The notes under the pieces were generated by a model. It was given only the letters and a program-made list of their open reading frames with translations, was not told the DNA's origin and searched no databases. Shown here piece after piece: positions 8,808-43,550 of a stretch of DNA of 64,000 nt. How positions within the stretch are numbered: the stretch's first letter is position 1; every line of letters starts with the position of its first letter. Made by a program: the position numbers and the translations under genes. This DNA is from Pseudanabaena sp. UWO311 (GTDB lineage Bacteria > Cyanobacteriota > Cyanobacteriia > Pseudanabaenales > Pseudanabaenaceae): the NCBI GenBank assembly GCA_943371975.1, contig CALRWX020000001.1, positions 24,725 through 88,724 on the forward strand, given 5' to 3'.

Positions 8808-10181
8808 TCAGTTCCAACTAGCAAAAATGGTGCGGATCTCAGTGATGGCAGCGTCAACTGCCTTTTCTGTCGATATGTCGCCGGTGGCAACGGTCTCAAT
8901 CGCCTTACCCCAGATGTTTTTAGCGATTACCTCGCTGTAACCAGGATTGAGAATCCATGTAGGTATTTTTGAAGACTTCATATCCTGGATTGCAGAGGCG
9001 ATATGTACATCTTTTGCATTACGCCAAAAGGGCATGGCGATAATTGACTTTGTGGTGGGCAAGAAGCGACCCTGAGATCCTTCTACATAACGACTTAGGT
9101 TTTCTGTTTTGAGTACGTAGGAAAGTAAGTCTTTGGCTTGATTGACATTGGAACTGTCAAATACAATGGCTTGCTTTACGGATAAGAAAGATTGCATCGG
9201 TGAGCCGTCAACTTTTTTGGGCCAGGGCACGGAGCCAAGACGTTCGAAGTAAGCGATTTCGTCAGAAATCTGGGAGCCTGGGATTGAAAGTGTCGGGTTA
9301 GCAGTCATCAGGGAAAGACTACTAAGAAAATCGATATTATTATCAGGGTCGGACCAGCTTGTGGCTTTTGGAGGCACATATTTTTCTTTGTAATTACTGG
9401 TGTAATCATTAATTGCGTTGATAATTTTTTTACGCGTAACAGGATCCTCAACATTGAGCTTGCCTGTAGAGGTTACTATTTCGACACTGTGGGCTTCTAG
9501 GAAAAACTCAAAAATATAGGTGGTGTCCCTCGCCCGACTAGACATGGGAAGGGACATCCCATAGATTTTGCCGTAGCCCTTTTGGCGCAATGATTTTTGG
9601 CCGGCATGCCAGAAACCCCAGAATTCTTTCCATTCATTCGGGATCTTTGTTTTTTTATTAGTGACGCCACTGGCCTCATCAACCAGATCTTTCCAGTAAT
9701 GCAGACTGACGGAATGCTGTGAGATCGGAACAGCGTAAACCGACTTTGACTTTGTTTGTTTATTCATGTAGGTAACCCCATCCAAGACCCCTGGTAAGAG
9801 ATCATTTTGGATGGGCTTAACAATGTCGTCAAGGGCAATCAATTTATTATTATAGCTGAGCACGGGAACAACCGTATCGTTGATTCCATAGCCATAGAGG
9901 AGGTCAGGGGTTGGTCCACCATCGATAGCCGAACGTGCTTTCGCAGCCAGTTCATTTTCACTAAAGAAACTTAGGTTGATTTTGTTGCCAGTAATTTTTT
10001 GCCAATTCGCGAAGATCTTTTCAATCGCATCGGTTTCTTCGGGATAATATCCTTCAGACCACCAAACTTCAAGATCGTGCTTGCTTTGCTTGATGTCAAG
10101 ACCTCCCGATAATCCAAGCGATTTACAGGAGGCAAGCATGCCAACGGCAACCCCGGTGGCAACAAAATTTCGTCTCTTCAT
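8808..10181 (-). CDS. ABC-transporter extracellular solute-binding lipoprotein (family 1, sugar-type)
   Basis: 457 aa with a Tat-like RRNFV signal plus lipobox LASC. Its size and composition fit SBP family 1. Its stop lies 10 nt before the start of the dCache ORF. Confidence 0.8.
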   Translation of the reverse strand: MKRRNFVATGVAVGMLASCKSLGLSGGLDIKQSKHDLEVWWSEGYYPEETDAIEKIFANWQKITGNKINLSFFSENELAAKARSAIDGGPTPDLLYGYGINDTVVPVLSYNNKLIALDDIVKPIQNDLLPGVLDGVTYMNKQTKSKSVYAVPISQHSVSLHYWKDLVDEASGVTNKKTKIPNEWKEFWGFWHAGQKSLRQKGYGKIYGMSLPMSSRARDTTYIFEFFLEAHSVEIVTSTGKLNVEDPVTRKKIINAINDYTSNYKEKYVPPKATSWSDPDNNIDFLSSLSLMTANPTLSIPGSQISDEIAYFERLGSVPWPKKVDGSPMQSFLSVKQAIVFDSSNVNQAKDLLSYVLKTENLSRYVEGSQGRFLPTTKSIIAMPFWRNAKDVHIASAIQDMKSSKIPTWILNPGYSEVIAKNIWGKAIETVATGDISTEKAVDAAITEIRTIFASWN

Positions 10182-14034: not shown

Positions 14035-17016
14035 ATGCTGGAACCTTCGCTCATCGTGACAACCCAAGATTCTTCGTTCTCAGAAACGAAAGAATTGAGG
14101 GTTCCAGCCTTTTCAAGCAATGCTAAGCATAATGACTACCAAGCAGATTGTCTAAGTAATGATGCGTTTGCCCCCACTGATAGCTTTGTGCGTCGTCATA
14201 TTGGTGCAACATCCCCAGAAACTCAGCAGATGCTCACAGCAATCGGTTGTGACTCTCTTGATGAAATGATTTATAAGACAGTGCCTGCGGCGATCAGAAT
14301 TAAGCAGCCATTGCAACTAGGTGAAGCACGCGGGGAATATGAACTGTTACAAGAATTAAAGGCGATCGCCTCGAAAAACCAAGTTTGGCGATCATATATT
14401 GGCACTGGCTATTACAACTGCATCACACCACCGATTATTCAGCGCAATATTTTAGAAAATCCGGGTTGGTATACGCAATATACCCCTTACCAAGCCGAAA
14501 TTGCTCAAGGTCGCTTGGAAGCTTTGCTCAATTTCCAAACTATGATTATCGACTTGACTGGTTTAGAGATTGCTAACGCTTCTCTCTTAGATGAAGGGAC
14601 GGCGGCGGCAGAAGCGATGACCATGGCGGCGGGAATTGCTAAGAACAAGGGGAATAAGTTCTTTGTATCCAGTGATTGTCATCCGCAAACGATCGCTGTC
14701 GTCAAAACCCGCGCAATTCCTCTAGGCATTGAAGTCGTGATCGCCAAGCACGATCAAGTGATATTTGATCGAGACTACTTTGGGGCATTGTTGCAATATC
14801 CCACTAGCGATGGCGCGATCTATGACTACACAGAAGTTATTTCGCAAATCCATGCTCAAGGTGGTTTAGCGATCGTTGCTGCTGATTTATTAGCACTTAC
14901 TTTGATTAAATCTCCTGCTGAATTGGGATCTGATATTGCGATCGGTAGCGCCCAAAGATTTGGTGTTCCCTTTGGTTATGGAGGTCCTCACGCTGCTTAC
15001 ATGGCAACTAAGGAAGCTTACAAGCGACAAATGCCCGGACGCTTAGTGGGAGTTTCTAAAGATGTGCATGGTCGTCCTGCGCTCCGTTTAGCATTGCAAA
15101 CCCGCGAACAACATATCCGCCGCGATAAGGCAACTAGCAACATTTGTACGGCTCAAGTACTACTGGCAATTATGGCAAGTATGTATGCGGTTTATCACGG
15201 TGCTGAAGGATTAAGGCGGATTGCAAAACGTGTTAACCTCTTAACTTCAAGCCTTGCCCAATCGATCGCCGATCTCGGTCATACAGTTACGCATCAAGCC
15301 TTCTTCGATACAATTCGCATTGAACTAAAGGGAATCTCTAGCGATGAGATTAAAGTTAGAGCTGCTGCCAAACAGATTAATTTAAGGTATTTAGAAAATA
15401 ATGCGATCGCTATCAGCCTCGACGAAACCGTCTCTAAGCAAGATTTAATTGATCTGATTGCTATATTTTCTGAAGATCAATTAGGAATTAGGGATTCCGA
15501 ATTAAGAATTCCTGATTCTCAATTCGGAATTTCCAGTTCTCTCATTCGTAATTCCCCGTATCTCACCCATCCGACATTCAATTCCTATCATTCTGAATCA
15601 GAGTTATTACGCTATATCTATCGTCTGCAATCAAAGGATTTATCGCTCACCACATCGATTATTCCTCTTGGTTCCTGTACGATGAAGCTCAATGCTACTT
15701 CTGAGATGCTTCCCATGACATGGGCAGAGTTTGGCAATATTCATCCCTTTGTACCATTGGAGCAAACCCAAGGCTATCAGATTCTGTTTCGACAATTAGA
15801 AACTTGGCTCGCGGAAATCACAGGCTTTGCAGGCGTATCACTCCAACCTAACGCGGGATCTCAGGGTGAATATGCAGGTTTACTCACAATTCGAGCCTAC
15901 CACCAACATCGAGGACAAACCAATCGTCATATCTGCCTAATACCCACCTCGGCACATGGGACAAATCCTGCAAGTGCAGTTATGGCAGGGATGAAGGTTG
16001 TGACGGTAAATTGCGATCGCGAGGGCAATATTGATCTCATAGACCTCAAGGCAAAAGCCGAAAAACATCAGCATGAACTCGCGGCTCTAATGGTGACTTA
16101 TCCTTCGACTCATGGCGTGTTTGAGGAATCGATTAAGGATATTTGCGATGTCGTTCACTATCACGGTGGACAGGTATATATGGATGGCGCGAATATGAAT
16201 GCTCAAGTCGGTCTCTGTCGTCCGGGAGATATTGGTGCGGATGTCTGCCATTTGAATCTGCATAAGACTTTCTGTATTCCTCATGGTGGTGGTGGACCGG
16301 GGATGGGACCGATTTGTGTTGCTCCGCAGCTAGTTCCATTTTTGCCAATGCATCCTTTAGAAGAAGTTGTAGAACCAAATACCATTTCGGCAGCTCCTTG
16401 GGGTAGTGCGAGTATTCTCACAATTTCATGGGTATATATTGCTTTGATGGGAGCGAAAGGCTTGAAACTGGCGACCGAAATGGCGATTCTCAATGCAAAC
16501 TATATGGCTCAACGTCTTGCTCCCCACTATCCGATTCTTTATACAGGCAAAAATGGCTTGGTTGCCCATGAATGTATCATTGACCTACATGATTGCAAAA
16601 ATATTGCTGGTATTGAGGTAGATGATATTGCCAAGCGCTTGATGGACTATGGCTTCCATGCCCCAACAGTTTCTTGGCCAGTGGCGGGGACGATGATGAT
16701 CGAGCCAACGGAAAGTGAATCAAAAGCGGAACTCGATCGCTTCTGTGATGCGATGATCGCCATTAAGCAAGAGGTGAATGCGATCGCCTCTGGTGATCTC
16801 GAAAAACTGGACAATCCCCTCAAAAATGCACCGCATACTGCCGAAAGTTTATTAGCTGATGATTGGGCTCATGCCTATAGTCGCCATCAAGCCGCCTATC
16901 CTGCCCCTTGGCTGAAGGAACATAAATTCTGGGCAAGTGTGGGACGTATTGATAATGCTTTTGGCGATCGCAATTTCGTTTGCTCTTGCCTCCCTATACA
17001 AGCCTACGAAGCATAA
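14035..17016 (+). CDS. gcvP: glycine dehydrogenase (decarboxylating), glycine cleavage system P protein
   Basis: 993 aa single-chain P protein with [29 protein letters not shown] and [19 protein letters not shown] (PLP-lysine region). Confidence 0.95.
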
Positions 17017-17049
17017 AATAAAGTTCTGCCAAAGGCAGAACTTTATTTT
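17015..17049 (+). terminator. rho-independent terminator of gcvP
   Basis: aaaataaagttctgcc aaa ggcagaactttatttt forms a perfect 16-bp stem ending in a T-run. Confidence 0.85.
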
Positions 17050-17061
17050 TAAAAGAAACCT

Positions 17062-17745
17062 ATGCGAATCTTATTGGTGGATGATGAGGAAGAACTGGCA
17101 GAACCTTTGCAAAGGGTTTTGACAAATCAGGGCTATGTCGTGGATAGCGCCAGTAGTGGCGATCGCGGATGGGAGTTGGCTCAGGTTGGCGAATACGATC
17201 TGTTGATTTTAGACTGGATGATGCCAGAGAAATCAGGGATTGAGATTTGTCGGAATTTGCGCGAAAAAGGCGATAGTACCCCTGTTCTGATACTTACCGC
17301 CAAAGATACGCTCGACGATCGCGTGACAGGTTTAGATAGCGGAGCCGATGACTATCTGGTTAAACCCTTTGAATTGCGAGAATTATTAGCTAGAGTCAGA
17401 GCTTTATTGCGCCGCGCCCCAACTGCGATCGCTGTAACCGTTGAAACTTCTCGGTTGAGCTATGGAGATTTAGAACTTGATCGCGAAAATCAATTGGTCT
17501 ATCGTGATCAAGTAGCGATCGCTTTAACAGAAAGAGAATATCAACTTTTAGAATATTTCCTACTCCATCCCAATCAGTTATTGAGTCATGAGCAGATTTC
17601 ACAACATATATGGAAAGAAGGTGAAGATTTGCCCACTAGTAATGCTTTGGCTGCCCAAATAAAATTATTACGTCGTAAAATAGATCGCGATCGGCAGATC
17701 TCTCTAATCAATACGGTATATGGTAAGGGATATCGTTTTGGTTAA
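17062..17745 (+). CDS. OmpR-family two-component response regulator (orphan; no kinase is adjacent)
   Basis: Receiver domain (MRILLVDDEEE ... LILDWMMP ... LTAKD ... KPF) plus a winged-helix C-terminus (TVYGKGYRF). Confidence 0.9.
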   Translation: MRILLVDDEEELAEPLQRVLTNQGYVVDSASSGDRGWELAQVGEYDLLILDWMMPEKSGIEICRNLREKGDSTPVLILTAKDTLDDRVTGLDSGADDYLVKPFELRELLARVRALLRRAPTAIAVTVETSRLSYGDLELDRENQLVYRDQVAIALTEREYQLLEYFLLHPNQLLSHEQISQHIWKEGEDLPTSNALAAQIKLLRRKIDRDRQISLINTVYGKGYRFG

Positions 17746-17759
17746 AAATTTGTATAAAA

Positions 17760-17820
17760 ATCCCCGACTTCTTTTGTGGAATTGAAAGGTATTTTTGGTA
17801 GAAGAGAAGAAGTCGGGGAT
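17760..17820. repeat. dispersed hairpin with ATCCCCGACTT / AAGTCGGGGAT stems
   Basis: atccccgacttctt (17760-17773) pairs with aagaagtcggggat (17807-17820). The same stem motif occurs inside the MITE at 43390-43451. Confidence 0.8.
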
Positions 17821-18005
17821 CTCGGACTGATGGTTGCGTGGAACGCAGATTATAAATCTCTTGCTGAATCGCGTGACAGGGAAAGGGGGATTGCCCCTAC
17901 CCAAATAATTGAAATTTTAGACCCTGTAGGGGCTGCGCCCCCGTGCCAGCCCCTAATCTTGGACATCACAGAAATTTCTTCCACGTATTTATTACAGATA
18001 AATTG

Positions 18006-18353
18006 TCATGGTAATGCTTTGCCTCTACAGGATTTTGTCCATCCACCAATTTCAGAACCGATATCTTGTAATTCTTTGTTGAAATATTCGTAGCGATTAT
18101 TTAGTAATAATTCAAAATCATGTAATAGACGAATTTGATAGCGTAAGATGTCAATATTAGAGTTAAGTTCTTCTAGTATGGGAAGTTTGTTTTTGTGGTA
18201 ACGTGCTATGATTAATTTGTCTAGCAAATCATAAAGTGAAGTGATAATTCTATTACCTAACAAATATTTGTGATCGTGAGATAATTTATTAAGAATTGGT
18301 ACTGTCCATTTGATTAAATCGTAGGTTTTTTGAATTACTGGCAGTTCGTTCAT
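18006..18353 (-). CDS. avd: four-helix-bundle protein resembling DGR accessory variability determinant (Avd)
   Basis: 115 aa. PVIQKTYDLIKWTVPILNKLSHDHKYLLGNRI ... LDILRYQIRLLHDFELL ... GGWTK is what I recognise as cyanobacterial Avd / 23S-rRNA-IVS-protein family. It lies directly downstream of a VR-bearing target gene. Confidence 0.7.
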   Translation of the reverse strand: MNELPVIQKTYDLIKWTVPILNKLSHDHKYLLGNRIITSLYDLLDKLIIARYHKNKLPILEELNSNIDILRYQIRLLHDFELLLNNRYEYFNKELQDIGSEIGGWTKSCRGKALP

Positions 18354-18390
18354 GAAATCTCTTTACAAAAGTCAACAATAGCCAAAATCG

Positions 18391-18418
18391 AAAAACAAAA
18401 AAAAGTGCCAAAGGCACT
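18391..18418 (-). terminator. rho-independent terminator between the DGR-type target gene and avd
   Basis: On the minus strand: agtgcc ttt ggcact followed by ttttttttgttttt. Confidence 0.7.
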
Positions 18419-18506
18419 GAACCTAAGTGCAAAATATAAAGCGCAAAAGGGCTAAAAAGCAAAGAAGAAGCCCTCACGCACGCGGAAGGAAGAAAAAGAA
18501 CGGAAC

Positions 18507-20345
18507 TCAAGCGACAACAACCCGAAAACCGAAATCGTAGTAGCTAATGCCCGCAAAGTAACAGTGGCGATACGCTGAACGACAACGGATGTCGGCCCAC
18601 GAGCCACCCCGCAGAGCGCGTCTGCTGTGATCGCCACCAGTTAGCCACGCAGAGCCATTGGTGGGTGCACCATTATAATTTTCATGCCATACGTCTTCAC
18701 ACCATTCCCAAACATTGCCATGCATATCATGCAATCCCCAAGAATTCGCTAACTTCTCTCCCACTGGATGTGTTTTACCTGCTGAGTTCTTATTATACCA
18801 TGCATAGTTCCCTAATTCACTAACATCATCACCAAAACAATATTTACCAGTACTTCCAGCGCGACAAGCATATTCCCATTGTGCTTCAGATGGTAGCTTC
18901 ACTTTTTGACCAATTCTTTTCGATAGTTCCTCACAAAACTTCACAGCATCATGCCATGACACGCACTCTACAGGGTAATTCTCATCGCGTTTGAAATTGG
19001 ATGGATTCTTCCCGATCACCGCCTGATATTGCTTTTGGGTAATTGGGTATTTACTCATCTGAAAAGCTTTCAACGTAACTTGATGTGGTTTTTTCTCATC
19101 ATTAAAATCATTACTTCCCATCGTAAAACTTCCCGAAGGAATATCCACTAACTCCAGATTTAATTCCCTAAAAAGAGCCTGACTGCGTTCTCTGGCTTCC
19201 TGCTGTCTTTGCAGAGCAAGTTGTTCTTCCTGTTGACGGCGAAGCTCGGCGGCGGCGCGTTCCTGTTCTTCCTTTGCCTTTTTTGCTTCCAATACAGGCG
19301 AAAGCTCGTGCTGCACATAGGTTTGAATATTTTCCAAACAAACTTCAAGAGAAGTCTCAGTATTTGCACTCTTCAACCTGTAGTCAAATTCAACTTCACC
19401 ATTAGCATTGCGCGAATTTTCCAATGCATCTAACAACCGATCTTTTTTCAAGTCACTCGCCACCAGAAAATCAAGGATCTTTTGAGACGAGCGATCGTTC
19501 ATTGGCAGATTGCCCGCCTGCTGGCTCACCGCCATTTCGGCAATTTGTTTGATTTCCCGCATTGCTCCCGACAAATCTTTATCAACTTTCGCCACATTCC
19601 CCAACAAAGTTTGGAAAGAACCTAAGAAACTTTCCATATAGTTCTCAAAATTAAAGGCAATCTTGGTCAGTTCCGCCGCTTCAGCTTGCAAACGATTAAT
19701 TTTCAATTGGATTTCATAGGCTCTTTTCTGAACGCTCAGTTTTTTGAACATGCTTTCCAAAACATCGCGCTGCGTTTGTTGATCGTTGGCGATTTTTTCG
19801 AGACTGGCACTCATCAAGTCCAACTTTTTCAACATCAAGATTGCCGCGTAGCCGATCGCTTTGGCTGTGTCTAAAATTTGGGTCTTTTGAGAAGCCGCAA
19901 TTTGTAACAAATCACCATCGTTTTCCTGTCGAGCAATCCGTTCAAATTCCAAGCGCTCTTTTTCCACATTGGCAATATCTGCACATTTGCGGGTCACGAT
20001 CTCGCGAATTTCATCGGCTAGGTTTTCAAAAAACTCCTGATATTCACCTTGATGGTTTTGCAATGTCTCAATGACAGCATCATAATTTTTGACCAGTTTA
20101 TCCAATTCCACAAAGCGATCTTCAAACTTGAGTTCTTGCCTAACGACTTTTTTAATGATTTTTTTAGTAAAAAAGCCTTTTTCCTCAATAGTTCTCTCGC
20201 TTTCAATATATCCCCGTTGCAAATTTTGACTACCACTACAAATTTCAGCTTGTAGGCTGTCGAGTTTACCGTCGCCTAATACGGGCAAGGAATAAGTACG
20301 CTGATAAATTTTGATCTGACGTTTGCGATCGCTAGGGTTACTCAT
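18507..20345 (-). CDS. DGR-target-like protein: ~390-aa helical/coiled-coil N-terminal region fused to an FGE-sulfatase (C-type-lectin fold) domain
   Basis: 612 aa. The C-terminal domain carries IPSGSFTMGS, VECVSWHDAVKFC, LPSEAQWEYACRAG, WGLHDMHGNVWEWCED and RGGSW...GFRVV. It is preceded by the charged coiled coil KKAKEEQERAAAELRRQQEEQLALQRQQEARE. Confidence 0.8.
   Translation of the reverse strand: MSNPSDRKRQIKIYQRTYSLPVLGDGKLDSLQAEICSGSQNLQRGYIESERTIEEKGFFTKKIIKKVVRQELKFEDRFVELDKLVKNYDAVIETLQNHQGEYQEFFENLADEIREIVTRKCADIANVEKERLEFERIARQENDGDLLQIAASQKTQILDTAKAIGYAAILMLKKLDLMSASLEKIANDQQTQRDVLESMFKKLSVQKRAYEIQLKINRLQAEAAELTKIAFNFENYMESFLGSFQTLLGNVAKVDKDLSGAMREIKQIAEMAVSQQAGNLPMNDRSSQKILDFLVASDLKKDRLLDALENSRNANGEVEFDYRLKSANTETSLEVCLENIQTYVQHELSPVLEAKKAKEEQERAAAELRRQQEEQLALQRQQEARERSQALFRELNLELVDIPSGSFTMGSNDFNDEKKPHQVTLKAFQMSKYPITQKQYQAVIGKNPSNFKRDENYPVECVSWHDAVKFCEELSKRIGQKVKLPSEAQWEYACRAGSTGKYCFGDDVSELGNYAWYNKNSAGKTHPVGEKLANSWGLHDMHGNVWEWCEDVWHENYNGAPTNGSAWLTGGDHSRRALRGGSWADIRCRSAYRHCYFAGISYYDFGFRVVVA
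18510..18644 (-). other. putative DGR variable region (last 45 codons of the target gene)
   Basis: Invariant scaffold strings RALRGGSW / RCRSAYR / GFRVV separate three patches: LTGGDHS, ADI and HCYFAGISYYDF. The patches consist almost entirely of NNC/NNT codons encoding residues reachable from AAC/AAT. Confidence 0.6.
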
Positions 20346-20432
20346 TTGCTGTAGCTACAAGTCTATAAATACGCTCATACTATTTTAATTCACTTTTAAT
20401 TTGCCAATATCGTTGCTCACCCTACTACAGAA

Positions 20433-20482
20433 ATAAACTTGGCAAATTTCGGCAACTTTTCGGTATTGTATCGTATTGCTTA
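20433..20482 (+). repeat. left copy of the 50-bp direct repeat flanking hicBA
   Basis: ataaacttggcaaatttcggcaacttttcggtattgtatcgtattgctta against 21062-21111: 46 of 50 identical. Confidence 0.9.
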
Positions 20483-20534
20483 AGCGATCGCCTTATGAAT
20501 TTGATACAGGAAGGGTTGCGCGATTCACCTAACC

Positions 20535-20577
20535 TATAATTTTTGTTTAATGAATGCGTTACGTTACGCTAACGCAT
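20535..20577 (+). promoter_or_regulatory. candidate hicBA promoter -10 box plus palindromic operator
   Basis: TATAAT at 20535-20540. Palindrome atgcgtta (20554-20561) / taacgcat (20570-20577) lies about 60 nt upstream of the hicB ATG. Confidence 0.4.
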
Positions 20578-20635
20578 CCTACAAGCAATTAAACTAAAAT
20601 ACAGTAAAACAATTAGAATTCCTAGTAAAATCCTT

Positions 20636-20854
20636 ATGCTCACTACATTTACAGCAAATTACACCAAAATTGAGTCAGGCTATATGGGACAGCTTATAGA
20701 ATGGCAAGAGGTAATCACTGAAGGCGAAACCCTTGAATTGTGCCGAGAATCCTTACAAGATGCTTTACAAGAAATGATCGCAGCCTATAAACAACTAAAT
20801 AAAGATATTCCCAATGGTAAGTCCTTAATTGAGCAGATTCCAGTGGAAGTATAG
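20636..20854 (+). CDS. hicB: type II toxin-antitoxin system HicB-family antitoxin (short form without DNA-binding domain)
   Basis: 72 aa. FTANYTKIESGYMGQLIEWQEVITEGETLEECRESL-type HicB N-domain pattern. The stop lies 3 nt before the hicA start. Confidence 0.75.
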   Translation: MLTTFTANYTKIESGYMGQLIEWQEVITEGETLELCRESLQDALQEMIAAYKQLNKDIPNGKSLIEQIPVEV

Positions 20855-20857
20855 TTT

Positions 20858-21046
20858 ATGTCTGTTAAACGTAGCGATTTAGTAAAATATTTTGAAAGTA
20901 ATGGCTTCTATTTGCTTAGAGAAGGAGGAAATCATTCCATTTATACCAATGAAACCAAAACAATCCCCATCAAAAGACATCGAACTATTGATCGAATCAC
21001 AGCAAATGCTATATGTAAGCAAGCAGGAATTAATCCAAAGTTTTAA
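20858..21046 (+). CDS. hicA: type II toxin-antitoxin system HicA-family mRNA interferase toxin
   Basis: 62 aa. KRSDLVKYFESNGFYLLREGGNHSIYTN...IPIKRH is the classic HicA/YcfA signature, including the catalytic GxxH. Confidence 0.85.
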   Translation: MSVKRSDLVKYFESNGFYLLREGGNHSIYTNETKTIPIKRHRTIDRITANAICKQAGINPKF

Positions 21047-21061
21047 AAGATTTTCAATAAG

Positions 21062-21111
21062 ATAAACCTAGAAAATTTCGGCAACTTTTCGATATTGTAT
21101 CGTATTGCTTA
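21062..21111 (+). repeat. right copy of the 50-bp direct repeat flanking hicBA
   Basis: ataaacctagaaaatttcggcaacttttcgatattgtatcgtattgctta. Confidence 0.9.
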
Positions 21112-21210
21112 TGGAGAGATTGAGATCCCAAACTTTTTTGCATGAATGACAAAAACAATCTGCGATCGCAAAGAAAAAACGGAGAACTAGGCATCTGTAA
21201 TCAATTCAAT

Positions 21211-43140: not shown

Positions 43141-43550
43141 GTGTCAGAACAACCTGATAAATTTCCTTACGAAATTTCAGTTCATGCTAAAGAACGCATT
43201 GAGGAAAGAAATATATTGCTAACATGGATACAGGAAACGATAGAAAAACCTGATAAAACAGAACCACATCAAACTGATCCAGAGCTAGAAATAGCATTCA
43301 AAAAATTTGAAAGCTTTAGTGGGCGTGTTTTAAAGATTGTCTACAACAAAAATGTAAGTAGGTCAGCAAAAGAAACCTGTAAATGCCTAGATCCCCGACT
43401 TTTTCTAGGCAAGCAAAGACAATTTGCAAATTCACAAAAAAAGTCGGGGATCTTAATCTTTGCTTCTTAAGTTTTCTTATGCCTAGCTACTTATCTCCAA
43501 TAAGAATTGTTACGGCACATTTTGATCGGAGTATGAAGGGAAAACTATGA
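43141..43550 (+). pseudogene. DUF4258-family toxin-like gene interrupted by a 135-bp MITE
   Basis: The N-terminal part ...EISVHAKERIEERNI...RVLKIVYNKNV (to 43356) and the C-terminal part SPIRIVTAHFDRSMKGKL* (43494-43550) are in different frames. Removing the element plus one TA joins them in frame. Confidence 0.75.
43357..43491. mobile_element. MITE (135 bp) with imperfect terminal inverted repeats and TA target-site duplication
   Basis: TA|agtaggtcagcaaaagaaac ... gttttcttatgcctagctact|TA. It has an internal gatccccgac/gtcggggatc hairpin. Confidence 0.75.

Follow-up and report, generated by a model that had tools for sequence, protein, structure and literature searches.

In an intact diversity-generating retroelement (DGR), a reverse transcriptase (RT) together with the Avd protein copies the RNA of a template repeat (TR) into cDNA, misincorporating opposite adenines. 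The cDNA replaces the last ~150 nt of a target gene, the variable region (VR), guided by a 3' end that TR and VR share, the initiation of mutagenic homing (IMH) sequence. The experimental prototype is the DGR of Bordetella phage BPP-1 (mtd-avd-TR-brt), which is phage-borne, complete and active. Here we analyse a locus in a 64-kb stretch of the genome of Pseudanabaena sp. UWO311 (64,000 nt of contig CALRWX020000001.1; hereafter the window), where a target gene with a VR and an intact avd gene lie side by side. By general knowledge rather than sequence comparison, the locus resembles the BPP-1 element in its C-type-lectin-fold target, C-terminal VR, Avd and adenine-specific differences; it differs from the phage element in that the latter has its RT and TR, with the TR between avd and RT, and is carried by a phage. 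We conclude that the window locus is probably what remains of a cyanobacterial chromosomal DGR of the Pseudanabaena/Tumidithrix type, left with a frozen VR.

Incomplete DGRs have been described before. Thiohalocapsa PB-PSB1 has loci without RT and/or TR, shaped by repeats resembling miniature inverted-repeat transposable elements and by transposons; diversification in trans affects some of these incomplete loci, and one (DGR 1) does not vary (Doré et al. 2024, PMC10907252). That organism belongs to a different phylum from the window and its targets have different architectures, and the term 'Avd' is absent from the main text of the paper (PMC10907252). Chromosomal DGRs are known to have remote targets, in some cases over 100 kb away from the RT (Wu et al. 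2018, PMC5758913), and in cyanobacterial DGRs multidomain proteins with a C-terminal C-type-lectin-fold (CLec) VR are encoded at dispersed places in the genome (Vallota-Eastman et al. 2020, PMC7517822). The latter study also proposed that a favourable variant can become fixed when DGR parts are moved or lost, and described a degraded cassette in Anabaena sp. 90 that keeps only the RT, whereas the window keeps target and avd without the RT (PMC7517822). The present locus is another incomplete DGR, a known kind, and is unusual only in the half that survives and in the series of decay and re-wiring that is visible among its relatives. Since DGR surveys start from the RT, RT-less remnants of this sort are uncatalogued.

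The variable region and the avd gene

As the earlier note had recognised, an open reading frame (ORF) of 612 aa occupies 18507-20345 on the minus strand, and its residues 398-610 match the Pfam family FGE-sulfatase (PF03781, E=3.7e-51). By this match, the C-terminus of the target is predicted to form a formylglycine-generating-enzyme (FGE)-sulfatase/CLec domain that carries the VR. Aligned with the TRs of complete relatives, the VR in the strict, TR-homologous sense covers 18473-18619 (minus strand); it begins at GCGCTCTGCGG (18619) and ends at 18473, 34 nt beyond the stop codon. In the complete relatives the TR/VR homology extends from GCGCTCTGCGG to CGTGAG, ~45 nt beyond the stop codon. The IMH-like 3' end of the window VR (GGTTTTCGG...CGTGAG) is conserved with the relatives up to the point where their own VR and TR diverge.

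Two groups of variable codons fall within this stretch of the minus strand. At 18585-18596 the window reads GCC GAC ATC CGT (A D I R), where the TRs of relatives have AAC AAC, then AAT GCG, which is deleted in the window, and then ATC AAT. The second block (18531-18572) consists of TAT; CAC TGT TAC TTT; GGC ATT; and TAC TAC GAT TTC, with the fixed codons CGC, GCG and AGC interspersed. A further patch, GGC GAT CAC AGC AGA (18621-18635, minus strand), varies among paralogues; the TRs of four complete relatives (loci L017, L019, L028 and L023) match the window only from GCGCTCTG, so that this patch is untemplated. The three-patch VR of the earlier note is accordingly retained as an adenine-type VR, except that its first patch (LTGGDHS) lies upstream of the templated stretch. 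Likewise, the scaffold strings which it had taken as invariant include two codons that correspond to TR adenines, namely the first R of RCRSAYR (CGT) and the Y of SAYR (TAT).

Since the window holds no TR, the adenine specificity was measured against the TRs of relatives. Relative to the closest TR found, that of L017, 17 of 28 adenines are changed in the window VR and only 4 of 92 other bases (Fisher p=4.4e-10), which marks the VR as a genuine product of adenine mutagenesis. For comparison, cognate VR/TR pairs within the complete relatives show changes at 15-19 of 31-39 adenines and at 0-5 other bases. The window sequence is therefore a real, formerly diversified VR. The 6 nt missing from it (AAT GCG) are present in all seven TRs recovered, and the deletion is private to the window VR. 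In addition to this mismatch in length, each of the seven TRs, all from other strains, has at least four non-A mismatches to the window VR, and those of the A-type have 4-7 non-adenine mismatches each.

A terminator-like hairpin (AGTGCC-TTT-GGCACT followed by a T run; 18404-18418, minus strand) lies between target and avd, 55 nt past the 3' end of the VR. It resembles an intrinsic terminator and is conserved among relatives; in locus L031, T-A is changed to C-G. Apart from this hairpin, RNA folding downstream of the VR gave no stability above that of shuffled sequences (z=-0.69), and an Rfam scan of 17000-21200 gave no match at E<=0.1.

The intact avd gene (18006-18353, minus strand; 115 aa) begins 153 nt downstream of the stop codon of the target. 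Its product matches the Pfam family bAvd (PF22296, E=4.9e-19, 69 bits against a cut-off of 40) and passes the NCBIfam equivalog model NF033474, 'diversity-generating retroelement protein Avd' (120 bits against a cut-off of 80). At E<=0.01 bAvd was the sole Pfam family for this ORF, and no 23S intervening-sequence (IVS) family was reported. The ORF was thus correctly taken for Avd in the earlier note, and its interpretation of the locus as half a DGR is borne out by a genuine VR next to a genuine Avd, with near-identical avd genes in complete DGRs.

Compared with the Avd of the complete DGR in Pseudanabaena sp. FACHB-1998 (L017), the window protein is 98% identical at the amino acid level and the gene 90% identical at the DNA level. 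The 33 synonymous and 2 non-synonymous differences between the two genes indicate strong purifying selection. This ratio shows past selection rather than present use, and most of the history that it records may predate the loss of the RT. With 30.7% G+C (1.3 percentile), avd is the only AT-rich part of the block. A foreign origin of the block, suggested by its paucity in HIP1 sites or its G+C content, was considered and rejected, neither being significant; the single HIP1 site that had been noted is there, but it is unremarkable, given that 20% of the 2.6-kb windows in the 64 kb have at most one.

Complete relatives and the junction downstream of avd

To place the locus among its relatives, the pattern CGCGCYCTGCGKGGTGGCTCGTGG was scanned across GTDB representative genomes, a set that does not include the source assembly. 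The scan returned 16 VR loci, every match being a VR. It missed the TRs because TR homology begins one base later (AGCGC...), and TRs were recovered only within loci that happened to include them. Four of the 16 loci also hold Avd and RT, and avd was seen only in loci with an adjoining RT. These four are Pseudanabaena sp. FACHB-1998 (L017, NZ_JACJQA010000004.1), Pseudanabaena sp. UBA1465 (L019), Tumidithrix elongata (L028) and P. cinerea (L023), whose Avd proteins are 98%, 93%, 68% and 59% identical to that of the window, respectively.

In L017 the avd gene (603-950) is followed by the RT (1140-2207; 355 aa, with the motifs LGNLTSQ and YVDD) and then by the TR (2230-2379). The same order, target-avd-RT-TR, is found in the complete Pseudanabaena/Tumidithrix DGRs throughout (L017, L019, L023, L028, L037 and L042-L047), including the L037-type elements, in which the RT has 389 aa. 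The order target-avd-TR-RT, which the earlier note had assumed, does not hold for this family. DGRs of the L017 type share with the window the VR scaffold, the IMH-like 3' end, the terminator hairpin and the CLec/FGE fold; they differ from it in having an RT and a TR 3' of the RT, in an unrelated target N-terminus and in their chromosomal site.

Two observations on the complete elements are added here. Immediately downstream of the TR, a stretch of ~60 nt (TACTGCCaAAGGTCAGAAT...GGGAATGAATCGAGTGTACGTTATGGaAGTCCAG) is conserved in both TR families (L017 2380-2440, L019, L028, L023 and L037); it may correspond to the spacer RNA by which cDNA synthesis is primed in the Bordetella phage. In the RT-bearing strain of L038, an in-frame TAA in the VR (TGG TAA TAC; 1552-1577) truncates the target; it results from a C to A change and not from a change at an adenine site.

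The homology between the window and L017 extends over 18748-18010 (84% DNA identity) and stops at the end of avd; with the complete elements in general it reaches the avd stop codon plus 16 nt. These 16 nt (CAATTTATCTGTAATA; 17990-18005, minus strand) align with the avd-RT spacer of relatives as its remnant, and the adjacent 27 nt are common only to the window and the sister contig L048. The earlier note had described ~260 bp of repeats after avd, followed by a convergent response-regulator gene, and this arrangement is confirmed: repeat-rich DNA of 260 nt (17746-18005) separates avd from the OmpR/RppA-type regulator gene (17062-17745, plus strand; Pfam Response_reg and Trans_reg_C), a host gene that bounds the remnant.

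Two repeats make up most of this DNA. A dispersed repeat of ~140 nt with G+C-rich hairpins lies at 17822-17962 (minus strand). A copy of it occupies the same position in the avd-RT spacer of the L037-type DGRs, ending ~15 nt before the RT start codon, which fits a putative breakpoint just upstream of the RT; other copies are found in L031 (1923-2085, 81% identity) and L027. Where the RT would start, the window has instead a 62-nt repeat with terminal inverted repeats (GATCCCCGACTTCTTC...GAAGAAGTCGGGGAT; 17760-17821, minus strand), and the regulator stop codon comes 14 nt past it. Repeats of this type (62-66 nt, with 16-nt terminal inverted repeats) are present at both independent junctions of RT-TR loss, in the window and in L031-L036, and in other Pseudanabaena genomes (L026, L027 and L029) up to four tandem copies directly follow the 3' untranslated regions (3'UTRs) of remote VRs. 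Copies were located at 17760-17821 and 43386-43457 in the window and at L031 6568-6620, L026 4303-4689, L027 2650-2821 and L029 3539-3607. The association of the repeat with the edges of DGR cassettes looks non-random.

No second copy of the VR, which would represent a TR, was found in the window by blastn at word size 7. Six-frame scans of the window gave no RT motif, and with a cognate-family RT as query, the best tblastn match had E = 6.8. The absence of both from the 64 kb, stated in the earlier note, is thereby substantiated. Outside the window, the RT-TR contig L051 (GCA_020063685.1) was considered as the cognate and rejected, its TR being of normal length and having non-adenine mismatches to the window VR; the closest RT clusters stem from samples other than that of the window locus. 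A metagenome scan with the window-specific, adenine-free 3' end (TTCTTCCTTCCGCGTGCGTGAG) gave no hits, and is uninformative on the TR since the VR locus itself was absent as well.

A second case of the same loss was found through a close Avd variant (P0255), which occurs on 22 contigs at the canonical site adjoining an SNF2 helicase gene. In L031-L036, the segment corresponding to L017 1114-2433 (RT and TR) is replaced by ~260 nt that include the same 62-nt repeat as in the window; avd is intact, and the six assemblies examined share an identical VR. L031-L036 represent an independent loss of RT and TR in another lineage, and a clean precedent. The frequency of such loci was surveyed in 51 metagenomic loci that encode an Avd homologue and extend at least 1.5 kb downstream of it. 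An RT match directly follows avd in 50 of the 51, although it is only a fragment in several (L073, L093 and L127); the remaining locus, L123, has no RT match after avd. RT-less avd loci are thus uncommon but recurrent, and these four loci suggest that decay of the RT beside an intact avd recurs in cyanobacterial DGRs.

Strain comparisons and the state of the VR

The chromosomal site of the window locus is also that of P0005 (92%), the non-identical homologue closest to the target. In the sister-strain contigs L048, L049 and L050, the flank with the response regulator and glycine dehydrogenase genes is 99% identical to the window, and avd is reduced to its last ~80 nt, a 3' stump. These contigs keep ~85 nt of the avd-RT spacer that is mostly gone from the window, and then enter the same repeats by the same junction. 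Since the sister strains share the junction and hold more of the spacer, the common ancestor presumably already had target, avd and spacer at this site without RT and TR. After the split, one lineage lost avd and the other a part of the spacer, and avd is dispensable at the sister-strain site.

The sister strains also differ in the VR itself. In L048 (2119-2300) and L049 (1070-1250), the VR and 3'UTR belong to a different TR family (GCGCCCTGCGTGG..., with the 3' end GTTTGCCTTTTCGCGTGAGGAC) and evidently derive from a paralogue by gene conversion. Between the two contigs there are 18 differences in 68 nt of VR, all of them at first or second positions of AAY-type codons, as against 27 differences in ~5990 nt of flanks (0.45%). 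The sister-strain VR is thus being diversified in trans, and it appears that another DGR has taken over the orphaned target.

The window-type VR behaves differently from that of the sister strains. The exact Avd protein occurs on at least 22 contigs, and all those listed are at the window locus; because these contigs were retrieved through Avd, the sample is unbiased with respect to the VR. Against L001-L005 and L009 the window differs by 0.27-0.36% in the flanks and at a single site in 120 nt of VR (C/T at 18566, CAC/TAC), and against L008 both flanks and VR are identical. This single polymorphism among eight assemblies corresponds to the background rate, with no hypervariability at adenine sites. 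The hypervariability among related strains that had been anticipated is therefore absent from the window-type VR and present at the orthologous site of the sister strains. Among RT-bearing loci, L037 and L038 differ at 4 VR sites with 1 difference in 4400 nt of flanks, and L042-L047 show no difference in either VR or flanks, so that the latter control is uninformative. All of these comparisons rest on consensus assemblies.

Taken together, the background rate of change in the VR and the private 6-nt deletion speak against homing after the divergence of these strains. The deletion would not survive another round of homing from a normal-length TR, and therefore counts for a frozen VR. Of the two options that the earlier note had left, a decapitated DGR with a frozen VR or a module served from elsewhere, the former is now favoured by the equal divergence of VR and flanks in the eight assemblies, by the deletion, and by the decay of avd in the sister strains.

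One contig departs from this picture. Compared with the window, the VR allele of L006 (109-230, corresponding to window 18537-18635) carries 30 substitutions and two insertions of 6 nt. The differences all lie within 18537-18632, plus 18666 and 18683, and the rest of the contig differs by 0.19%. The L006 allele shares the scaffold strings and eight derived adenine-site states with the window allele; its replaced patches contain codons that are out of reach of adenine mutagenesis of AAY (Lys, Gln, Met and Glu). Contig L007 starts exactly where the L006 and window alleles reconverge. A search found the allele in no other assembly or protein record, and no donor for its patches. It may be a second real allele produced by patchwise recombination, or an assembly artefact at the end of a contig.

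In the history that we favour, the RT-TR part would have been deleted, or would never have been copied when the VR-avd segment reached the site. The VR-avd-spacer segment was possibly copied in by gene conversion between the conserved lectin-domain region and the flanking repeat; in that case an RT may never have been at the site, and the donor DGR may persist. In either event, the RT-less state would predate the split from the sister strains. With no cognate template, the VR would be fixed in one previously diversified state, the target would now encode a binding protein of constant specificity, and avd would be a leftover. Several points weigh against this history. As the ~140-nt repeat also occurs at unrelated places, deletion in situ is not proven. 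Stasis of the VR in consensus assemblies is weak evidence, for six assemblies of an RT-bearing strain (L042-L047) share one VR too. The heavily different VR of L006 in a near-identical background is not explained by a frozen VR. An A-type RT-TR elsewhere in the genome, beyond the 64-kb window, is possible, and the intact avd under purifying selection could mean that the gene is still in use.

The last two points lead to the possible, though in our view rather unlikely, alternative of a remote target-plus-avd module that is rarely rewritten in trans by a complete A-type DGR elsewhere in the genome, the VR-IMH-avd-spacer segment having been copied in by gene conversion between the conserved CLec region and the flanking dispersed repeat. 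That the same locus is diversified in trans in the sister strains shows service of this kind at the site, albeit with a VR of another TR family, and gene conversion of VR and 3'UTR has occurred there. The window locus has also kept what such service would use, namely an intact IMH-like 3' end and hairpin and an avd that evolved under purifying selection. For chromosomal DGRs, remote targets at distances above 100 kb from the RT have been documented (PMC5758913), and Thiohalocapsa has incomplete loci diversified in trans, although one matching locus there is invariant (PMC10907252). However, the window VR has not turned over across 0.3% of flank divergence, while that of the sister strains turned over at 0.45%. 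Its private 6-nt deletion and the 4-7 non-adenine mismatches set it apart from every A-type TR found, avd was lost without replacement in the sister lineage, and among the 16 GTDB VR loci those with avd all had an adjoining RT. We regard it as unlikely that the RT-less module is still alive in a broader sense, either as a satellite whose avd is retained by selection, an idea that comes from the intact avd of two independent RT-less loci, or through RT-independent change of the tip by gene conversion. If it were, L006 would be the first sign of such RT-independent change, and the sister strains would represent a third route, in which an orphaned target is re-wired by swapping VR and IMH.

The RT-independent route in its specific form, a VR still diversified by patchwise gene conversion from paralogous CLec C-termini with L006 as one product, seems very improbable. 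It would account for the concentration of the L006 changes in 18537-18632 (plus 18666 and 18683) over a background of 0.19%, for the identical scaffold strings between the patches and the eight derived adenine-site states common to both alleles, and for the start of L007 at the point of reconvergence. Yet the allele is known from a single contig end, where misassembly is possible, and is absent from all other assemblies and protein records; the search for a donor sequence gave nothing, and no VR in the family has codons like these. There is hardly any room left for an ordinary FGE-domain paralogue that merely stands beside an unrelated four-helix-bundle gene and has no DGR history. The lack of TR and RT within 64 kb would suit such a paralogue, but it is refuted by the adenine-specific pattern against related TRs (p=4e-10), the Avd equivalog match, the 84% DNA identity of the stretch from VR to avd with a complete DGR, and the avd-RT spacer remnant at the site. 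The remnant with a frozen VR thus remains the reading that we prefer.

Together with its relatives, the locus forms a natural series: complete elements; loss of RT and TR with avd intact, twice independently; deletion of avd; and a swapped VR that is re-diversified in trans. The series shows how a binding protein that was hypervariable can be fixed and recruited again later, and leaves knowledge of the DGR mechanism unchanged. For annotation it carries the warning that the activity of a DGR does not follow from an Avd gene or from VR-like codons.

The target gene and its surroundings

The N-terminal ~390 aa of the target constitute a coiled-coil/unknown module, and a Pfam search of the N-terminal ~385 aa (19200-20345) gave no match. 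The module also occurs in Pseudanabaena proteins in which GUN4 or TPR replaces the lectin domain (62-64% identity). From this distribution, the N-terminal part seems to behave as a constant module with exchangeable C-terminal heads. For the C-terminal domain, none of the NCBIfam enzyme equivalogs PvdO, EgtB and GldK was reached at its cut-off by the target protein.

Between the two parts, the Glu/Arg/Gln-rich linker contains a 42-nt unit that is present as a single copy in the window (19225-19266, minus strand). In L001 the unit forms a tandem array of 4.1 copies (8876-9046). The length of the target varies with this array (612, 679 and 707 aa), and several assemblies break at it. Just upstream of the target, on the opposite strand, lies a toxin-antitoxin pair composed of a HicB-like (UPF0150) gene and a HicA gene (20636-20854 and 20858-21046, plus strand).

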